Shown one piece after another: positions 2,999-24,158 of a DNA stretch of 29,450 bases; position 1 is the stretch's first letter, and every line of letters begins with the position of its first letter. The notes under the pieces are model-generated. The model did no database searches. It was given only the letters and a program-made list of their open reading frames with translations, and was not told the origin of the DNA. Source of the DNA: a virus. Location: UHGV virus genome UHGV-0338605; one strand, written 5' to 3'. A program made the translations under genes and the position numbers.

Positions 2999-3406
2999 TT
3001 ATTTTTCGCTCATTATCTGCTTCAGAAGATAACCTTCCAGCATCCAGATTTTATTTACCGCATTTTCGCGGGAAATCTTTCGCCCGATCTCTGGGTCGAA
3101 GTTCTCAGGGCTGGCGCATGCACTCTCGCCGGTGACAGTGAATCCATTTCGCAGCACTAGAACGCAAAACGTAAGTACTGCAGCCTGCTCAGGAATGTTC
3201 AACTCCTCAACCTTTTCATCATCTGACTTTGTATCAGTCAAATATTGATGGCGACCTGCTATACCATCAGCAGCCGTGAAGTAATGCTCACTTACTATAA
3301 CGTCGGCAATCCGTTGTGGCGTAATGCGCGGCGCGTTTAAGCCTTTAGCCTGAATTTCCTGCTCGATTGCCATGCAGGATGGTGCTGGAGATGCGGTTGA
3401 TACCAT
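2999..3406 (-). CDS. small phage protein, possibly Gp49/Gp66-like family (about 135 aa)
   Basis: ORF on the minus strand; ATG at 3406 preceded by AGGTGA (the track's GTG at 3415 is less likely). The C-terminal ASPENFDPEIGRKISRENAVNKIW resembles, from memory, Phage_gp49_66-type proteins; unverified. Confidence 0.55.
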   Translation of the reverse strand: MVSTASPAPSCMAIEQEIQAKGLNAPRITPQRIADVIVSEHYFTAADGIAGRHQYLTDTKSDDEKVEELNIPEQAAVLTFCVLVLRNGFTVTGESACASPENFDPEIGRKISRENAVNKIWMLEGYLLKQIMSEK

Positions 3407-3613
3407 GATTTTCACCTTAAAAAAATGCCCACCGAAGTGGGAGAACTGGAAGCAAGGGTGCCTTCCATGGCTTTACGGGTTTACAGCGCAACGTCATCGC
3501 AATGGCGTTCTGCTGTAAAAGTGACGGTGGTCAGCATCAAGGGAAACTGCCACCGCCAATAGCTACACAGCATCGTTCTTATGGGCGCTTCATCACGGTC
3601 CTAAGGCGTGATC

Positions 3614-3690
3614 TGGTGCGGCATGCAGGATTCGAACCTGCGACCAACCGCTTAGAAGGCGGTTGCTCTATCCAACTGAGCTAATGCCAC
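3614..3690 (-). tRNA. tRNA-Arg (anticodon UCU), argU-like
   Basis: Minus-strand 77-nt sequence GTGGCATTAGCTCAGTTGGATAGAGCAACCGCCTTCTAAGCGGTTGGTCGCAGGTTCGAATCCTGCATGCCGCACCA folds as a cloverleaf: 7-bp acceptor stem with one G-U pair, GTTCGAATC T-loop, anticodon loop CTTCTAA, encoded CCA. Confidence 0.88.
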
Positions 3691-4143: not shown

Positions 4144-4160
4144 ATTACCTAAAAGGTAAT
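4144..4160. promoter_or_regulatory. 17-bp palindrome ATTACC-TAAAA-GGTAAT, candidate operator, copy 2 of 6
   Basis: Read directly; about 90 bp upstream of the ATG at 4250 in an AT-rich promoter-like stretch. Confidence 0.6.
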
Positions 4161-4470: not shown

Positions 4471-6141
4471 ATGGCGGAAACCGAAAAAGAGCGTCTGCTG
4501 AAGCAGCTCGCACAGCTGAAGAATGAGCGCACATCGTTCGAGTCGCACTGGCGTGACCTGAGCGACTTCATCAATCCGCGCGGCTCTCGCTTTCTGACGT
4601 CTGATGTAAACCGTGATGATCGTCGAAACACCAAGATTGTTGATCCTACTGGCTCAATGGCTCAGCGCATTTTGTCCAGCGGCATGATGTCAGGCATCAC
4701 CAGCCCGGCACGTCCATGGTTCAAACTGGCAACGCCAGACCCTGACATGATGGATTATGGTCCGGTTAAAGTCTGGCTGGAAGTCGTGCAGCGCCGCATG
4801 AACGAAGTGTTCAACAAGTCAAACCTGTATCAGTCATTGCCTGTCATGTACGCCAGCCTTGGCACTTTCGGCACCGCCGCAATGGCTGTGCTCGAAGATG
4901 ACCAGGACGTGATCCGCACAATGCCTTTCCCGATTGGCAGCTACTACCTGGCTAACAGCCCGCGCGGCAGCGTCGACACATCCTTCCGCCAGTTCTCCAT
5001 GACTGTTCGTCAGCTTGTGCAGGAATTCGGTCTGGATAACGTCAGCTCATCGGTGCAGGGGATGTGGCAAAACGGCACGTATGAAACGTGGATCGAGGTT
5101 AACCACTGCATTACTCCAAACGTTAACCGTGATACCGGGAAGATGGACAGCAAGAACAAGCCGTTCCGCTCTGTGTACTTCGAGAGTGGCGGCGATTCCG
5201 ACAAGCTGCTGCGTGAGTCCGGCTTCGATGAATTCCCGATCCTGGCGCCGCGCTGGGAAGTTAACGGCGAAGACGTTTACGCATCTTCCTGCCCTGGCAT
5301 GCTGGCACTCGGTCAGGTGAAAGCCCTTCAGGTTGAGCAGAAGCGTAAAGCTCAGCTGATCGATAAGGCTACTAACCCGCCGATGGTCGCACCTACCTCG
5401 CTAAAAACACAGCGTGTTTCCCTGCTGCCTGGTGATGTGACGTACCTCGACGTGTTGAACGGTCAGGACGGTTTCAAACCTGCATACCTGGTAAACCCGA
5501 ATACTGCAGATCTGCTGGCTGATATTCAGGATACCCGCCAGACCATCAACAGCGCCTACTTCGTCGACCTCTTCATGATGCTGCAAAACATCAACACCCG
5601 CTCTATGCCGGTGGAAGCAGTGATCGAGATGAAGGAAGAGAAACTTCTGATGCTTGGCCCGGTGCTGGAGCGCCTGAACGACGAAGCACTTAATCCGCTT
5701 ATTGACCGCGTTTTCTCCATCATGGCGCGCAAGAACATGCTTCCTCCACCGCCGGACGTTATGCAGGGTATGCCGCTGCGTATCGAATACATCTCCGTTA
5801 TGGCGCAGGCTCAGAAATCTATCGGACTCACCAGCCTTTCGCAGACCGTTGGCTTCATTGGCCAACTCGCACAGCTCAAACCTGAAGCGCTCGACAAGCT
5901 CGACGTTGATCAGGCTATCGACGCGTTCTCCGAAATGTCCGGCGTATCGCCAACCGTCATCATTCCGCAGGAGCAGGTTCAGGGCATTCGTGAAGAGCGC
6001 GCCAAACAGGCACAAGCCGCACAGGCAATGGCAATGGGGCAGGCCGTAGCGCAGGGAGCCAAGACTCTCAGCGAGACGCAAACCACTGACCCGAGCGCAT
6101 TAACCGCTATCGCTAATGCAGCAGGAGCACCGCAGCAATGA
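4471..6141 (+). CDS. portal (head-to-tail connector) protein
   Basis: 556-aa ORF with RBS, first large gene of the head module after terminase; size and position typical of podovirus portals; Ala/Gln-rich C-terminal tail. Confidence 0.75.
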   Translation: MAETEKERLLKQLAQLKNERTSFESHWRDLSDFINPRGSRFLTSDVNRDDRRNTKIVDPTGSMAQRILSSGMMSGITSPARPWFKLATPDPDMMDYGPVKVWLEVVQRRMNEVFNKSNLYQSLPVMYASLGTFGTAAMAVLEDDQDVIRTMPFPIGSYYLANSPRGSVDTSFRQFSMTVRQLVQEFGLDNVSSSVQGMWQNGTYETWIEVNHCITPNVNRDTGKMDSKNKPFRSVYFESGGDSDKLLRESGFDEFPILAPRWEVNGEDVYASSCPGMLALGQVKALQVEQKRKAQLIDKATNPPMVAPTSLKTQRVSLLPGDVTYLDVLNGQDGFKPAYLVNPNTADLLADIQDTRQTINSAYFVDLFMMLQNINTRSMPVEAVIEMKEEKLLMLGPVLERLNDEALNPLIDRVFSIMARKNMLPPPPDVMQGMPLRIEYISVMAQAQKSIGLTSLSQTVGFIGQLAQLKPEALDKLDVDQAIDAFSEMSGVSPTVIIPQEQVQGIREERAKQAQAAQAMAMGQAVAQGAKTLSETQTTDPSALTAIANAAGAPQQ

Positions 6142-21773: not shown

Positions 21774-21790
21774 TTTACCATTAGGGTAAA
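21774..21790. promoter_or_regulatory. 17-bp palindrome TTTACC-ATTAG-GGTAAA, candidate operator, copy 3 of 6
   Basis: Read directly; 40 bp upstream of the minus-strand ATG at 21734. Confidence 0.6.
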
Positions 21791-21927
21791 TGAACTATCC
21801 GAATGTTAAACGCCTTCGTACTCGTCAAATTTTCTCATGTGGGCTCCTCCTGTATCGGTGCCTAATCGCTATGGATCACCCGTAAGGTAATAGTACGCTA
21901 TTCACCCACAGTCTGCAATCTGTACAG

Positions 21928-21962: not shown

Positions 21963-22658
21963 TCAGAAGAATCCTGCTTTGTCGTTGATGTACTCCGCGT
22001 GAGTCTGGATATCACGCAGGCATTTGCTCACACCAACGATGTAGCAGAACATGGTGGTCAGTTCCGCCGCCGCGCCCGATACGTCATGCCCGTCTTCCTG
22101 TAACTGGTTCAGCAGATTCATCAGCAGTGAGTTCTCCGTCAGGCCGAGAACACCAGACGGCGAATGAATCAGGCTACGGTAGCCGGGCTTCAGTGGGGCG
22201 CTGTAGGTTTTGTTCTCTATCTTCATTGCCTGCATCACTGCTGATGCTGTGGCGTTTGCAACCTGGTCGGCAACCATCTTTATGCGTTCTTCCTGCGGGA
22301 GCGAGTTTTTAATGTAACTTCCGGTGCGGCGGATCTGAGGAAGAACCTCACCTGTAACCCATTTACGAAAGCGGTAGGGGATAGTGCCTGGTGTCACTGC
22401 GTCGCGGCAGCGGAGGATCAGTGTGTAGAGGCCTGACTCGGAGATGATGATCGATTCTTGCTCACCGCCAGGGGTGTCGGTTGAAGCGACGCCCTTCTCA
22501 TCATCATCAAGTTTTCGAACAGCATCTCGATGGTTTGCTATGCCTATAGCCCGACAAACATCTGAAGCGATAAACCATGGCTCACCATTAATGACGATTA
22601 CTCGTATATCGGCTTGGGATTCGAAAGAAAAAATGGACGTGCTTTTTGTAGCTGTCAT
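21963..22658 (-). CDS. Bro-N domain protein (antirepressor-like) with distinct C-terminal domain (231 aa)
   Basis: N-terminal FESQADIRVIVINGEPWFIASDVCRAIGIANHRDAVRKL matches the Bro-N/antirepressor N-terminal pattern; ATG at 22658 with AAGG upstream; C-terminal about 70 aa is paralogous to the small ORF at 23806-24066. Confidence 0.75.
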   Translation of the reverse strand: MTATKSTSIFSFESQADIRVIVINGEPWFIASDVCRAIGIANHRDAVRKLDDDEKGVASTDTPGGEQESIIISESGLYTLILRCRDAVTPGTIPYRFRKWVTGEVLPQIRRTGSYIKNSLPQEERIKMVADQVANATASAVMQAMKIENKTYSAPLKPGYRSLIHSPSGVLGLTENSLLMNLLNQLQEDGHDVSGAAAELTTMFCYIVGVSKCLRDIQTHAEYINDKAGFF

Positions 22659-22926
22659 AGTGGTTACCTTTTAGTCTGGTCAATCACCACTACCGACGCC
22701 AATCGGTTGGTGGTGAACTGTGCAGGGTTGGCGTAACCGGCTAAAAGGACCCGGCGCACCTTTCGGTGCCCCCACACAGCCCACCATAATACGAATGTGG
22801 CCGTGCTATACGCATAAAAAAACCGCTTGCGCGGTGAATGCGCCTTTTAGTAATCCGGGACGCCAATCCCGGCACTGGATTTTGCCAGTGCCCGATTACT
22901 ATGGCACAAGAGGAGTGCGATGTAAA

Positions 22927-22943
22927 TTTACCGAAAAGGTAAT
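22927..22943. promoter_or_regulatory. 17-bp palindrome TTTACC-GAAAA-GGTAAT, candidate operator, copy 4 of 6
   Basis: Read directly, in the divergent intergenic region 22659-23055. Confidence 0.6.
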
Positions 22944-23019
22944 GATAAACGCGGAGAAATATTAAAATCAACCGTATTTGGTTGATTGCGTTTAACGCTT
23001 GATCACCTGAAAGCAAGAT

Positions 23020-23036
23020 ATTACCTTTAAGGTAAT
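23020..23036. promoter_or_regulatory. 17-bp palindrome ATTACC-TTTAA-GGTAAT, candidate operator, copy 5 of 6
   Basis: Read directly; 20 bp upstream of the ATG at 23056. Confidence 0.6.
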
Positions 23037-23055
23037 GTTATTGTGAGGAAAAGCA

Positions 23056-23784
23056 ATGGAAGTTTTCTGGATAGTTGTTGGTGTTGTTACGGTGATTATT
23101 TACGTTATCAACCAGAACAGGACTAAGGTCTCTGATCGCACAGTCGTTAATCATCGCAAAACGATAAAGACCGAAGATGGAGAAATAACGATTAATCGTA
23201 CACAGGTGATAGACCACACCTCCACTCAGTTTCAAAAAACTGGAGGTAATGCGCCGGATATTTCAGTACATCCTGCTTATGATATATCGGTAATCCAGAC
23301 ATATTATAAACAACAGGAGTCAGCAAAAGAGAGGGCGCTGATTCAGCCAAAGCCATTTACAGCAGAGCTTCCACCTGGAGTGTCAACGCGTCCGGCATAT
23401 CATGACAGATTCCCAGGTGATGACATATCGTCTCAGTTACCTAAAAAAGCTCCTCAGGTAGTATCTGAGCCAGCAAGAATACCTTCTGTATCGCCATCAC
23501 AAGAAGAATCAGCTAACAGAGTTTCAAGTGGTAGTAAGCAGTGTTTGCGATGCAGAATAAACCTTCCATATGAAAAATTCAGGAAATCGTCAAAAAATCC
23601 AGATGGATTGACTAAGTGGTGTGCAAGGTGTCTCGATGGCCCAAAGAATACACGCCATATGAAGTGGTGCCCAATTTGTAATGTCCGCAGAAAACGCACC
23701 AGCTTTTACTCTAATAATCAAAATGCGGACGGCTTAATGGCATGGTGCAAAACGTGCTGGGACGAGCACAAAGCGAAACGATAG
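23056..23784 (+). CDS. membrane-anchored protein with tandem Cys4 zinc-ribbon-like repeats (242 aa)
   Basis: GAGGAA RBS; N-terminal hydrophobic helix FWIVVGVVTVIIYVI; C-terminus carries two repeats of C-x2-C-x(17-20)-DGL-x3-WC-x2-C; AT-rich; followed by a strong terminator. Confidence 0.65.
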   Translation: MEVFWIVVGVVTVIIYVINQNRTKVSDRTVVNHRKTIKTEDGEITINRTQVIDHTSTQFQKTGGNAPDISVHPAYDISVIQTYYKQQESAKERALIQPKPFTAELPPGVSTRPAYHDRFPGDDISSQLPKKAPQVVSEPARIPSVSPSQEESANRVSSGSKQCLRCRINLPYEKFRKSSKNPDGLTKWCARCLDGPKNTRHMKWCPICNVRRKRTSFYSNNQNADGLMAWCKTCWDEHKAKR

Positions 23785-23808
23785 GCCGCTCTTGCGGCCT
23801 TTTTTTTA
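23784..23808 (+). terminator. rho-independent terminator
   Basis: Stem GGCCGC/GCGGCC (23784-23799) with TCTT loop followed by T8 (23800-23807). Confidence 0.75.
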
Positions 23809-24066
23809 TGTGGTTTGTTTTCGTAATTGTTCGGCACAATAGTCGAGATGTGTTTGCAGATCCTTCATGGATAGCTGTGAGCTGGTGACATAGTTCACCA
23901 GTGCAGTAAGTTCGGCCAGCGGCCCGTCGACGTTGAACCCGTCTTTATCAAGTTCCCGCAATAAAGTCATAAGGTGCGAGTTCTCCACCAGGGATATAAC
24001 GCCTCCCGGCGTGTGTACTCTTTCATAAAATCCATCTTCCAGTGGGTGGTGATACCGCTGTTGCAT
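23806..24066 (-). CDS. small protein (86 aa) paralogous to the C-terminal domain of the Bro-N protein
   Basis: ATG at 24066 preceded by GGAG (the track ORF begins at a TTG at 24084). About 40-45% identity by eye to residues about 160-225 of the 231-aa Bro-N protein (shared ENS-LM-LL, DG-V-G, AELT, QTH-Y). Confidence 0.6.
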   Translation of the reverse strand: MQQRYHHPLEDGFYERVHTPGGVISLVENSHLMTLLRELDKDGFNVDGPLAELTALVNYVTSSQLSMKDLQTHLDYCAEQLRKQTT

Positions 24067-24141
24067 TAACCATTCTCCATACAAACACTGTATATATATA
24101 CATATATCAGATGAACCACTGTTTCACCAGTATGATTTTTA

Positions 24142-24158
24142 ATTACCTGTGAGGTAAT
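24142..24158. promoter_or_regulatory. 17-bp palindrome ATTACC-TGTGA-GGTAAT, candidate operator, copy 6 of 6
   Basis: Read directly; between the divergent starts of the 86-aa gene (24066, minus) and the tail spike gene (24262, plus). Confidence 0.6.

Follow-up and report, generated by a model that had tools for sequence, protein, structure and literature searches.

A possible superinfection exclusion gene in an epsilon15/phiV10-like prophage encodes a predicted membrane-anchored protein with two tandem Cys4 zinc fingers

Introduction

What might a membrane-anchored zinc-finger protein do when its gene lies beside the antirepressor operon of a prophage? This question is raised by a gene in the UHGV virus genome UHGV-0338605, of which a stretch of 29,450 nucleotides (hereafter, the window) was analyzed. 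The host element is an epsilon15/phiV10-like (Uetakevirus) prophage. Genes adjoining cI or antirepressor genes have repeatedly turned out to be exclusion or defence genes (RexAB, SieA, sie2009). A first-pass annotation, made from the sequence of the window, had described a membrane-tethered protein with two Cys4 repeats and had suggested an exclusion or sensor role. Here, we describe the gene, its product, its control region and its family, and we tentatively propose that the protein acts in superinfection exclusion.

Results

The gene encodes a predicted bitopic membrane protein

The coordinates of all features are given in Table 1. The coding sequence (CDS) is a full-length match to PHROG 6762, a family of unknown function. 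A DNA match of 100% identity was found in E. coli JNE070796, in which the product (WP_080849514.1) is annotated as "hypothetical protein". ETEC H10407 is another lysogen (locus ETEC_RS30685). When the CDS was compared with 92%-identical variants, the dN/dS value was 0.27-0.33. The value was 0.4-0.5 in the linker and 0.04-0.06 in the zinc module, which indicates strong purifying selection on the latter. By these sequence comparisons, the CDS is a genuine gene under selection. The gene had been called AT-rich; this is correct but the bias is modest, because its GC content is 43.2% as compared with 49.4% for the window, at the 11th percentile of 729-bp windows.

Table 1. Positions in the window of the gene, its protein segments and the neighboring regulatory features
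Feature	Position	Strand	Remarks
Bro-N domain antirepressor-like gene	21963..22658	-	PF02498, E 2e-21
C4 antisense RNA	22706-22791	-	Rfam 77.7 bits, above gathering threshold
isrK-like sRNA	22816-22891	-	Rfam 77.9 bits, above gathering threshold
Second operator copy, TTTACCGAAAAGGTAAT	22927..22943	.	1 mismatch; promoter region of isrK-C4-ant operon
Accessory (moron-type) cassette, ~850 bp	22950..23805	+	promoter, gene and terminator
Predicted sigma-70 promoter	22999..23027	+	-35 TTGATC (22999-23004), 17-nt spacer, -10 TACCTT (23022-23027)
17-bp palindrome ATTACC-TTTAA-GGTAAT	23020..23036	.	perfect operator copy; overlaps predicted -10 and +1
Shine-Dalgarno GAGGA	23045..23049	+	6 nt ahead of ATG; sequence reading
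CDS, 242 aa	23056..23784	+	ATG start; read from sequence
Transmembrane helix, residues 3-20	23062..23115	+	hydropathy and AlphaFold2 helix; predicted N-out/C-in
Juxtamembrane segment, residues 24-58	23125..23229	+	predicted beta-hairpin; T39, G42, E43 conserved
Pro/Ser-rich variable linker, residues 59-158	23230..23529	+	largely disordered; one predicted helix at 77-94
Zinc finger 1, residues 161-194	23536..23637	+	C163, C166, C189, C192
Zinc finger 2, residues 203-236	23662..23763	+	C205, C208, C231, C234; fold as finger 1
Intrinsic terminator	23783..23808	+	7-bp stem (6 GC pairs), 4-nt loop, T8 run

The N-terminal transmembrane helix in the first-pass annotation is borne out by the Kyte-Doolittle hydropathy of residues 3-20 (2.7 over 17 residues) and by an AlphaFold2 helix in the same residues (pLDDT ~90). 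For 52 of the 53 family members, the 15 residues that follow the helix contain more Lys and Arg than the stretch ahead of it. Because of this charge distribution, an N-out/C-in topology with cytoplasmic fingers is predicted. The product is thus predicted to be a bitopic inner-membrane protein with an N-terminus of 1-2 residues outside the cytoplasm, one helix and the remainder in the cytoplasm. The same charge bias disfavors an N-in topology, in which the fingers would be a periplasmic zinc or disulfide domain. With no more than 1-2 residues predicted outside the cytoplasm, a role as a periplasmic sensor is also unlikely.

In the juxtamembrane segment, AlphaFold2 predicts strands at residues 26-39 and 42-55 with low to moderate confidence. 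The following linker (residues ~59-158) contains 13 Pro and 13 Ser and its pLDDT is mostly below 50; it varies in length and sequence among homologues, and is coiled-coil-like in some distant ones. The low-complexity linker in the first-pass annotation is therefore confirmed. In contrast to the linker, residues 160-242 have pLDDT values above 90. These residues contain the two repeats C163-x2-C166...W188-C189-x2-C192 and C205-x2-C208...W230-C231-x2-C234. The first CxxC of finger 1 is predicted to sit on the knuckle of a beta-hairpin, and a short helix begins at the second. When all six reading frames of the window were translated, C-x2-C-x(12-26)-C-x2-C matched these two repeats and nothing else. 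Each of the 53 homologues compared, even at 20-30% identity, has all eight Cys residues and W188. Recurrence of the repeat in homologues had been set as a test of the tandem Cys4 reading, and the repeat is present in every homologue. Thus, a membrane tether with two predicted Cys4 metal sites is supported. The net charge of the zinc module is +14, and the family mean is +13.9 (range +7 to +19).

The fingers resemble the Stc1 tandem zinc finger and modules of viral HNH/EndoVII proteins

The family had not been recognized in the first-pass annotation. Indeed, no curated family claims the protein, but its fingers are recognizable. When Pfam was scanned at E<=10, only Stc1 and Prok-RING_4 were matched and neither was significant. 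The Stc1 (PF12898) match was the only one close to significance; at 23.2 bits (E 1e-4), with residues 202-235 (finger 2) as the best stretch, it did not reach the gathering threshold of 24.8. At E<=0.01, Stc1 was matched by 20 of the 53 family members. Among ten other relatives scanned, five exceeded the gathering threshold, and these are mostly multi-repeat proteins; the scores of relatives in the HMM-defined superfamily were 33.9 (P0062), 39.2 (P0090), 34.3 (P0120), 30.2 (P0154) and 25.4 bits (P0108). The top Foldseek match in the PDB was 2LUY, the Stc1 tandem zinc finger (E 4.6e-3, probability 0.87), with low TM-score and high rmsd, since the query was the entire 242-residue model; no other match had a probability above 0.2. 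A sequence profile search of the PDB gave one spurious match, and NCBIfam gave no significant match.

The same fingers are found in phage nuclease families. BFVD gave 35 matches at E<=1e-3, mostly viral HNH, EndoVII and "Zn-finger" proteins, and PHROG profiles for endonuclease VII and HNH match the finger region. An exhaustive profile search at E<=1e-3 collected 1745 cluster representatives, of which many have 3-11 tandem copies and some are fused to HNH or SF1-helicase domains. The fold is shared with the zinc modules of HNH and endonuclease VII proteins (PHROG 1035, 2633 and 2255; the beta-beta-alpha-Me scaffolds of PacI and Hpy99I), and the common motif is K-x-C-x2-C-x(n)-F-x(n)-DG-x3-(W)C-x2-C. 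Compared with these proteins, the phage protein lacks the nuclease or helicase domain and the catalytic His/Asn, and has a membrane anchor instead. S. pombe Stc1 likewise has two consecutive C-x2-C...C-x2-C fingers that form one unit. However, Stc1 is a eukaryotic adaptor, soluble and located in the nucleus, whereas the phage protein has an N-terminal membrane anchor, is encoded in a bacterial prophage and has much more basic fingers (+14). From these comparisons, the fingers are recognizable as a probable Stc1-type tandem zinc finger, an accessory module of viral HNH/EndoVII nucleases, with the nuclease absent.

For lack of catalytic residues, an active HNH nuclease was rejected. Pfam HNH and Endonuclease_7 gave no match even at E<=10, and no His column is conserved at >=90% in the family alignment. 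A His between the two CxxC knuckles is present in only 33 of 106 repeats, and the residue after the second CxxC is Leu or Trp as opposed to the Asn of the CxxCN in EndoVII. Moreover, the HNH domain of P0108 (468-513) is separate from its repeats (6-237), and it is likewise separate in the other nuclease relatives scanned. Restriction alleviation of the Lar type was also considered because PHROG 5558, which carries this label, was matched (E 4e-9). This candidate was rejected: the match is confined to the fingers and Pfam Lar_restr_allev (PF14354) was not matched.

The gene is carried by an accessory cassette

The edges of the cassette are marked by an imperfect direct repeat of ~20 bp (AACCGTATTTGGTTGATT at ~22969-22986 and TTTTATGTGGTTTGTTTT at ~23800-23817). 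In phiV10 and ~12 other Uetakeviruses, only the flanks match and the cassette is absent; in the phiV10 alignment, the difference is a clean indel of ~850 bp. Phage ZX5 also lacks the gene. The GC content of the cassette is 42.6%, as compared with 49.4% for the window. With a predicted promoter and terminator of its own, presence or absence in collinear phages and atypical composition, the cassette has the sequence characteristics of a moron.

The inferred promoter matches 8 of 12 consensus positions, which is below the threshold of 9/12 in the promoter scan. Of 11 orthologues, which come from several genera of Enterobacterales, 10 have a TTGAnn -35 element and a TAnnnT -10 element upstream, and the spacer is 17 nt in all five orthologue promoters that were read base by base. 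The strong terminator noted in the first-pass annotation is present: GGCCGC-TCTT-GCGGCC followed by T8 extends from the stop codon. A virion protein was rejected, because the ejection-protein genes on either side run in the opposite direction, the gene has a predicted promoter and a terminator to itself, and viable relatives do without it. Virion-protein homology, which had been named as the finding that would speak against the first interpretation, was not found.

The predicted promoter overlaps a dispersed putative operator

As noted in the first-pass annotation, a palindrome ATTACC-N5-GGTAAT is present upstream of the gene, 19 nt before the ATG. It is, however, not private to the gene but a copy of a dispersed operator. 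In the window, 10 copies were found at <=2 mismatches against 0.82 expected, and none of 100 shuffles reached 10. Besides the two sites in Table 1, there is one at 24142-24158. The complete prophage L107 has 17 copies, including copies on both sides of the repressor gene. In phiV10, there are nine copies in 15 kb and the motif flanks the repressor gene there too. The L107 repressor is identical to phiV10 p40 at 194 of 194 residues. The equivalent of this repressor in ZX5 blocks the lytic cycle (PMC9782041).

The gene was described as divergent from the Bro-N gene. This is correct, but isrK and C4 RNA genes, which had been overlooked, lie in between. These RNA genes are upstream of and co-oriented with the Bro-N gene, and together they resemble a P1-type immI operon that is divergent from the CDS. 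On the minus strand, promoter-like sites are found near the second operator copy (22971-22942 and 22926-22898). The Bro-N protein of the related phage ZX5 shows antirepressor behavior upon overexpression (PMC9782041). Because the operator covers the -10 element, the repressor most likely switches the gene together with the isrK-C4-ant operon. Judging from the placement of the operator, the gene is probably a member of the prophage repressor regulon.

Two other explanations of the palindrome were considered. Autoregulation through a private palindrome is ruled out, because copies occur throughout the prophage and also in phiV10, which does not have the gene. The left arm of the palindrome coincides with the conserved -10 element, which makes an RNA hairpin in the 5' UTR unlikely. 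A core regulatory role of the gene is argued against, since phiV10 and ZX5 share the repressor and yet lack the gene. Taken together, we consider it very likely that the architecture of the protein and the genetics of the locus are as described.

The family is linked to immunity regions

The wider family comprises PHROG 6762 and distant relatives, and is found in temperate phages of Gammaproteobacteria. Homologues with the same layout of one transmembrane helix and two zinc fingers comprise 33 close and at least 48 distant representatives. Among 5426 complete E. coli genomes, 133 have the family, which also occurs in prophages of ten or more other genera; the plasmid collection gave no match. 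The family is undescribed and carries no annotation anywhere. No family of the defence HMMs in PADLOC-DB v2 matched the protein or four neighboring proteins at E<=0.1, and literature searches by accessions, by the PHROG id and by Stc1 plus prophage gave nothing useful. In the libraries and literature searched, there was no characterized counterpart that combines an anchor with nuclease-type fingers and lacks the nuclease.

Judging from the neighboring genes, relatives in almost every lineage adjoin cI or antirepressor genes. For example, in Aeromonas phage phiARM81mr and at least eight other lineages, the homologue lies 15-54 bp downstream of cI on the same strand. The adjacent cI-type HTH+S24 repressors were verified with Pfam in L010, L012, L013, L014 and L017, and further cI-type repressors are adjacent in L092-99, L100, L101 and L102. 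Other immunity neighbors are Arc/Mnt-like plus KilA-N genes (L009), Bro-N/P22_AR_C (L016), Rha (L008) and, in Serratia, KilA-N/ANT. The position after cI is shared with lambda rexA-rexB, although there is no homology; in the window's phage, the gene adjoins the antirepressor operon and not cI. The lactococcal sie2009 type is another case of a gene co-transcribed with cI. A conserved partner gene was not found, because the other neighbors vary by lineage (hicAB, secreted proteins, small transmembrane proteins and, by eye, an SNase-like gene).

The off-state predicted for the present gene in a lysogen contrasts with the homologues co-transcribed with cI. Given this contrast, any function common to the family would have to be exerted both in the lysogen and soon after infection or induction.

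Discussion

We propose that the zinc-finger module, tethered to the inner membrane on its cytoplasmic side, may bind nucleic acid, and that the protein may interfere with the entry or establishment of incoming phage DNA. Such superinfection exclusion would be functionally analogous to that by P22 SieA or T4 Imm, although the protein is differently built. We give this reading a probability of roughly 35-40%. Exclusion is plausible because homologues adjoin cI or antirepressor genes and because the locus mirrors the sieA locus of P22. The P22 gene order is 16-sieA-orf59a-mnt|arc-ant-9: like the present gene, sieA is an accessory gene between ejection-protein genes and the tailspike gene, adjoining ant (immI). 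[quoted passage not shown] The analogy is, however, one of genomic position only. BLASTP gave no alignment between the two proteins at E<=100, and neither homology to SieA types A-C, nor the FxRYPxEAxxFNK motif, nor a multi-pass topology was found. SieA has three predicted transmembrane segments and no zinc fingers, whereas the phage protein has a single helix. Furthermore, sieA is expressed in the prophage from its own promoter PsieA, whereas the promoter of the present gene carries a repressor-type operator. Because this operator lies over the -10 element, the gene is predicted to be off in a stable lysogen, a state unsuited to exclusion of the classical kind, which protects the lysogen. In addition, with 1-2 periplasmic residues the predicted protein could not act on the periplasmic ejection conduit, unlike several known Sie proteins. 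A more specific version of the proposal, in which the proteins constitute an unrecognized immunity-region family of Gammaproteobacteria whose tethered fingers would intercept DNA emerging from the conduit, is speculative and we regard it as doubtful.

That the fingers may bind DNA is suggested by just two properties, their charge and the company of domains in which they occur. The ligand could instead be a protein, because the fingers of S. pombe Stc1 are protein-binding adaptors. An adaptor that, in the manner of Stc1, binds a host defence or regulatory factor or the phage's own repressor or antirepressor and sequesters it at the membrane might tune the lysis-lysogeny decision or neutralize a host defence (anti-defence). 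Stc1 is the closest solved fold, immunity genes are the neighbors in nearly all lineages, and expression alongside the ant operon in the early or induction phase is predicted, all of which are consistent with such an adaptor. However, the gene is dispensable in phiV10 and ZX5 with an identical repressor, and is therefore no core element of the circuit; no partner gene is conserved beside family members; and nucleic acid is a better fit to the high positive charge throughout the family and to the occurrence of the module alongside nucleases. We consider that the adaptor is a serious alternative but rather unlikely. A helper for the phage's own DNA, that is, a membrane anchor that organizes replication, genome establishment or packaging, is less likely. 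Its architecture would recall phi29 p16.7, which has an N-terminal transmembrane segment, a linker or coiled coil and a C-terminal DNA-binding domain. The helix, the linker (coiled-coil-like in some homologues) and the basic module of DNA-binding type agree with this idea, as does the operator over the -10 element, which predicts expression when repressor is lacking, namely in lytic development. Nevertheless, phiV10 and ZX5 are viable without the gene, the gene is not among replication genes, and co-transcription with cI in at least nine other lineages is unexpected for a replication role.

The rexAB-like position after cI in several phages also brings to mind an abortive-infection or toxic effector with the logic of RexAB in a single polypeptide: the fingers would sense phage nucleic acid or protein, and the transmembrane helices would oligomerize and depolarize the membrane. 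The single helix and the conserved juxtamembrane hairpin could allow oligomerization. However, derepression during the phage's own induction would be self-defeating, and no known Abi or defence protein was found to resemble the protein, so that this effector appears quite improbable. The endonuclease VII and HNH labels of the PHROG matches, together with the many HNH enzymes among the BFVD neighbors, could be read as signs of a cryptic membrane-bound nuclease in which each repeat is a zinc-stabilized beta-beta-alpha-metal (HNH-like) site that cuts incoming DNA. The missing Pfam matches, the poorly conserved His, the Leu or Trp in place of Asn and the separate HNH domains of nuclease relatives make this reading extremely unlikely.

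The dispersed 17-bp operator provides a directly testable map of the repressor regulon in phiV10-like phages. If superinfection exclusion is the function of the protein, several consequences follow. Exclusion in epsilon15-like phages would be wired into the repressor regulon through the operator. The finding would have relevance to phage therapy against E. coli pathotypes that carry Uetakevirus prophages. An entry block imposed from the cytoplasm would be a mechanism new to phage-phage competition, in which a DNA-recognition module known from homing/HNH endonucleases would work without the nuclease. It would also be the first function for a very widespread viral Stc1-like zinc module.

Architecture and conservation of the TM-zinc protein

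The TM-zinc ORF (242 aa, ATG start) lies where the first-pass annotation had placed it; as read from the sequence, GAGGA occupies the Shine-Dalgarno position at -11 to -7 before the ATG. The proposed N-terminal transmembrane (TM) helix corresponds to residues 3-20 (VFWIVVGVVTVIIYVINQ), a strongly hydrophobic stretch (Kyte-Doolittle 2.7 over a span of 17 residues) that is helical in the AlphaFold2 model (pLDDT ~90). In the same model, the juxtamembrane segment (residues 24-58) forms a beta-hairpin. The low-complexity linker was likewise recovered: residues ~59-158 are Pro/Ser-rich, are mostly modelled at pLDDT <50, and differ in length and sequence among homologues. The two reported repeats are C-x2-C...WC-x2-C units at residues 163-192 and 205-234, and six-frame translation of the window gave no other such pattern. 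The downstream terminator (7-bp stem, 6 GC pairs, T8) is also present and begins at the stop codon. The gene had been called AT-rich; its GC content is indeed below that of the window (43.2% vs 49.4%), but this difference is moderate rather than striking.

Among 53 family members, the flank before the helix has a median length of 1 residue and is almost never basic, and the 15 residues following the helix contain on average 3.5 K+R; this bias is obeyed by 52 members. From this charge bias, the positive-inside rule predicts an N-out/C-in orientation, which would place the Cys4 sites in the reducing cytoplasm. This predicted topology makes a periplasmic sensor domain unlikely.

Within Enterobacterales, a word-indexed search yielded 33 homologues, from the genera Escherichia, Superficieibacter, Enterobacter, Citrobacter, Salmonella, Serratia, Providencia, Pectobacterium and Buttiauxella; all of them share the helix, the juxtamembrane segment, a variable linker and both fingers. 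With an exhaustive profile search, the set grew to 1745 cluster representatives (E<=1e-3); 48 among the best 150 of these have the layout of an N-terminal TM helix plus two fingers in 150-250 aa. The repeat recurs in the homologues: in the 53-sequence alignment, the eight Cys and W188 are the only invariant residues, down to 20-30% identity. Against 92%-identical E. coli variants, dN/dS was 0.04-0.06 for the zinc module, 0.26-0.43 for the N-terminal part and 0.4-0.5 for the linker. The ORF is a genuine gene under selection, and its architecture is conserved. Of 5426 complete E. coli genomes, 133 carry it, always annotated as 'hypothetical protein'. The only carriers in 50,697 phage records are TL-2011b, Yersinia YeP4-6 and Aeromonas phiARM81mr, and none was found in the plasmid collection.

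Identity of the finger module

In Pfam, the sole near-significant match was Stc1 (PF12898; 23.2 bits vs a threshold of 24.8). Stc1 was matched at E<=0.01 by 20 of the 53 family members, and multi-repeat relatives exceed the Pfam threshold. Foldseek gave one meaningful match in the PDB, the tandem zinc finger of S. pombe Stc1 (2LUY, probability 0.87), and 35 matches at E<=1e-3 among viral models, mostly named 'HNH endonuclease', 'endonuclease VII' or 'Zn-finger protein', with one 'Stc1 domain'. PHROG EndoVII and HNH profiles also match the finger region. In the AlphaFold2 model, a beta-hairpin knuckle bears the first CxxC of each repeat and a short helix has the second at its N-terminus, a geometry that we take to be treble-clef-like. 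Relatives contain 3-11 copies of the finger unit, in some cases fused to HNH or SF1-helicase domains or HEAT repeats. The zinc module has a net charge of +14 and a pI of 9.9 (family mean +13.9, range 7-19). Judging from this charge and the company that the domain keeps, the putative zinc module probably binds nucleic acid.

PHROG 6762 (unknown function) matches the protein end to end. Neither Pfam, NCBIfam, PADLOC and PHROGs nor our literature searches gave an annotation or a paper for the family, its membrane-anchored architecture or its linkage to immunity regions. The domain type is already known; the protein family, the membrane-anchored layout and the systematic immunity-region linkage are without annotation.

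An accessory cassette in an epsilon15/phiV10-like prophage

The window corresponds to the late region of a prophage of the epsilon15/phiV10-like (Uetakevirus) type, and its features are listed in the table. The TM-zinc gene is divergent from a Bro-N gene, as had been noted, and the ~400-bp gap between them additionally contains isrK-like and C4 antisense RNA genes.

Features of the window: genes in order (apart from the tRNA-Arg and its neighbour), followed by repeats and palindrome copies
Feature	Position	Strand	Remark
Capsid, tail and ejection genes			First in gene order; include T7 gp14-family core protein
Hypothetical gene	about 2999-3415		Adjacent to tRNA-Arg
tRNA-Arg(TCT)	3614-3690	-	Between terminase and portal genes
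283-aa gene		+	After ejection genes
211-aa gene		-	Between 283-aa gene and Bro-N
Bro-N gene	21963-22658	-	Between 211-aa gene and C4
C4, then isrK-like sRNA, in tandem	22706-22891	-	Both well above Rfam thresholds
TM-zinc gene	23056-23784	+	After isrK
92-aa gp19-like gene	23806-24084	-	Between TM-zinc gene and tailspike
Tailspike gene		+	Followed by lysis genes, end of gene order
Direct repeat, left copy	22966-22987		Imperfect, ~20 bp
Direct repeat, right copy	about 23797-23820		
Putative operator palindrome, perfect	812-828, 4144-4160, 23020-23036, 24142-24158		
Putative operator palindrome, near-perfect	21875-21891, 22927-22943		Latter at isrK-C4-ant promoter
Putative operator palindrome, further copies	830-846, 21774-21790		

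In phiV10 and about a dozen relatives, both flanks match and ~850 bp (22950-23805) are missing; at this site phiV10 has a terminator and a remnant annotated 'similar to SF0880'. The direct repeat that bounds the cassette is single-copy in phiV10, which suggests a mode of insertion. Upstream of orthologues in several genera of Enterobacterales, a -35 (TTGAnn) recurs together with a -10 (TACCTT and variants): both hexamers occur in 10 of 11 aligned regions, and the spacer is 17 nt in all five sequences read base by base. In several orthologues, the predicted promoter lies immediately 3' of the preceding gene's terminator. The TM-zinc cassette, with its predicted promoter, is a moron by the usual definition.

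Several further features were observed. The isrK and C4 genes upstream of the Bro-N antirepressor gene form a P1 immI-like (c4-ant) module in a podovirus, and 22700-22885 is ~80% identical to many Stx-converting phages. The gp19-like protein is conserved beside the tailspike gene in epsilon15 and phiV10; over 77 residues it is 40% identical (E 6e-17) to the C-terminal portion of the Bro-N antirepressor, and therefore this C-terminal domain exists as a stand-alone gene too. The left direct-repeat copy doubles as an inverted repeat with an 8-bp stem, AATCAACC-N6-GGTTGATT. At the same position, just 5' of the -35 of the orthologue promoter, Citrobacter/Enterobacter-type prophages (L076-L081, about 4925-4940) have a perfect palindrome, TGTGACATGTCACA; these sites may be a second regulatory site. 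In L107, the complete prophage of E. coli JNE070796, operator-like palindromes flank the tRNA-Arg/hypothetical-gene insert, so this insert appears to be another accessory insertion.

A putative dispersed operator and the prophage repressor

The palindrome ATTACC-N5-GGTAAT is present upstream of the TM-zinc gene as first described, but it is not confined to this gene and is found prophage-wide. At <=2 mismatches, the window has 10 copies vs 0.82 expected, and none of 100 shuffles reached 10. The palindrome is also present in L107 and L108. L107, which is 100% identical to the window over 23000-23830, has 17 copies, including sites in the divergent cro-like/repressor region (where two further degenerate copies were seen by eye), in the interval that separates the repressor gene from the early-left operon, and at other intergenic positions. 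Copies are mostly intergenic, and they include sites on both sides of the two-HTH repressor gene. The early region of phiV10 has 9 copies in 15 kb vs 0.48 expected. In the Serratia, Citrobacter/Enterobacter-like and Superficieibacter loci, each ~10 kb has 2-4 copies of the core TTACC-N5-GGTAA, which was not found in the cI-linked loci of other genera.

The repressor gene falls outside the window; in L107 (44409-44993) it encodes a 194-aa protein identical to phiV10 p40. The phiV10 annotation assigns it two HTH motifs, although Pfam is confident of a single one, at residues 106-147; a second match, YdaS-like and at 21-61, is weak. The same sequence is ORF21 of phage ZX5, overexpression of which abolished free phage and lowered lysis-gene transcription by ~99.97-99.99% (PMC9782041). 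This repressor type has no S24 peptidase domain, which fits antirepressor-driven induction rather than RecA-mediated cleavage.

At the TM-zinc gene, the palindrome overlies the predicted -10 and +1; in the L083 orthologue, from a different phage background, the right half-site is lost. We infer that the palindrome is an operator at which the prophage repressor, Cro or both may act. The TM-zinc gene would then be silent in a stable lysogen, and infection or induction would turn it on along with ant. The set of sites looks like the P1-C1-style dispersed operators; we found no description of it in phiV10-type prophages.

Homologues lie at immunity loci

Homologue loci were taken from GTDB genomes and IMG/VR scans, and neighbours were assigned from Pfam matches and from phmmer searches with verified seeds. 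In Acinetobacter (L010), Marinobacterium (L014), Neptunomonas (L017), one IMG/VR lineage (L092-L099) and Aeromonas phage phiARM81mr, the homologue lies on the same strand directly 3' of a cI-type HTH+S24 repressor (gaps 15-54 bp); the annotated order in phiARM81mr is Cro, divergent from CI, then the gene. A small TM gene separates cI from the homologue in L101. Homologues are convergent with cI in Oceanobacter, Pseudoalteromonas and L100; they are divergent from a KilA-N antirepressor, behind an Arc/Mnt-like gene, in Acinetobacter L009, from a Bro-N/P22_AR_C antirepressor in Haemophilus L016, and from KilA-N/ANT in Serratia. The Edwardsiella copy follows a Rha gene near the integrase, and those of Superficieibacter and related prophages lie in accessory clusters after Bro-N; the Superficieibacter cluster has a pair resembling hicAB by eye. 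Thus, in almost all lineages the family is linked to immunity loci, and no partner gene is conserved across the loci compared.

Two Acinetobacter-type loci (L090, 5567-5878; L101, 4539-4847) have homologous ~102-aa multi-TM proteins (consensus MxxxxxxxWLNYxxxNIxG...) immediately beside the zinc-finger gene. The multi-TM gene is upstream in one locus and downstream in the other, so its product could be a lineage-specific partner.

The window order mirrors the P22 map (7-20-16, sieA, orf59a, mnt / arc, ant (with sar RNA), 9), with the TM-zinc gene in the place of mnt/sieA. The TM-zinc protein has no sequence similarity to P22 SieA.

Possible function

The TM-zinc gene is missing from phiV10 and ZX5, whose repressor is the same. 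Because the gene is accessory and immunity-linked and its fingers are predicted to be tethered at the cytoplasmic face, we favour superinfection exclusion, with a probability of roughly 35-40%. A basic, nuclease-type zinc-finger module would hang on a flexible tether from the cytoplasmic side of the inner membrane, while virtually none of the protein would reach into the periplasm, and would interfere with DNA arriving at this membrane or just inside it. Exclusion would serve lysogens where the homologue is co-transcribed with cI, and early infection or induction where, as in the window, the copy is operator-controlled. The imm and sp genes of T4 are early genes, a parallel for a role early after infection. 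The main weakness of the exclusion model is that the operator predicts silence in a stable lysogen of this phage group.

The same tether and fingers could instead form an adaptor that sequesters a protein, tuning immunity or countering a host defence, which we consider possible but rather unlikely. By analogy with phi29 p16.7, the protein might anchor the phage's own DNA to the membrane, a reading to which we give little weight, and we are still more doubtful of an abortive-infection effector. A cryptic nuclease is highly improbable, since the protein has no nuclease domain in Pfam and neither a conserved His nor a CxxCN motif in the family alignment and repeats. If the exclusion model is true, the TM-zinc protein would be a prophage accessory or exclusion-type membrane protein.
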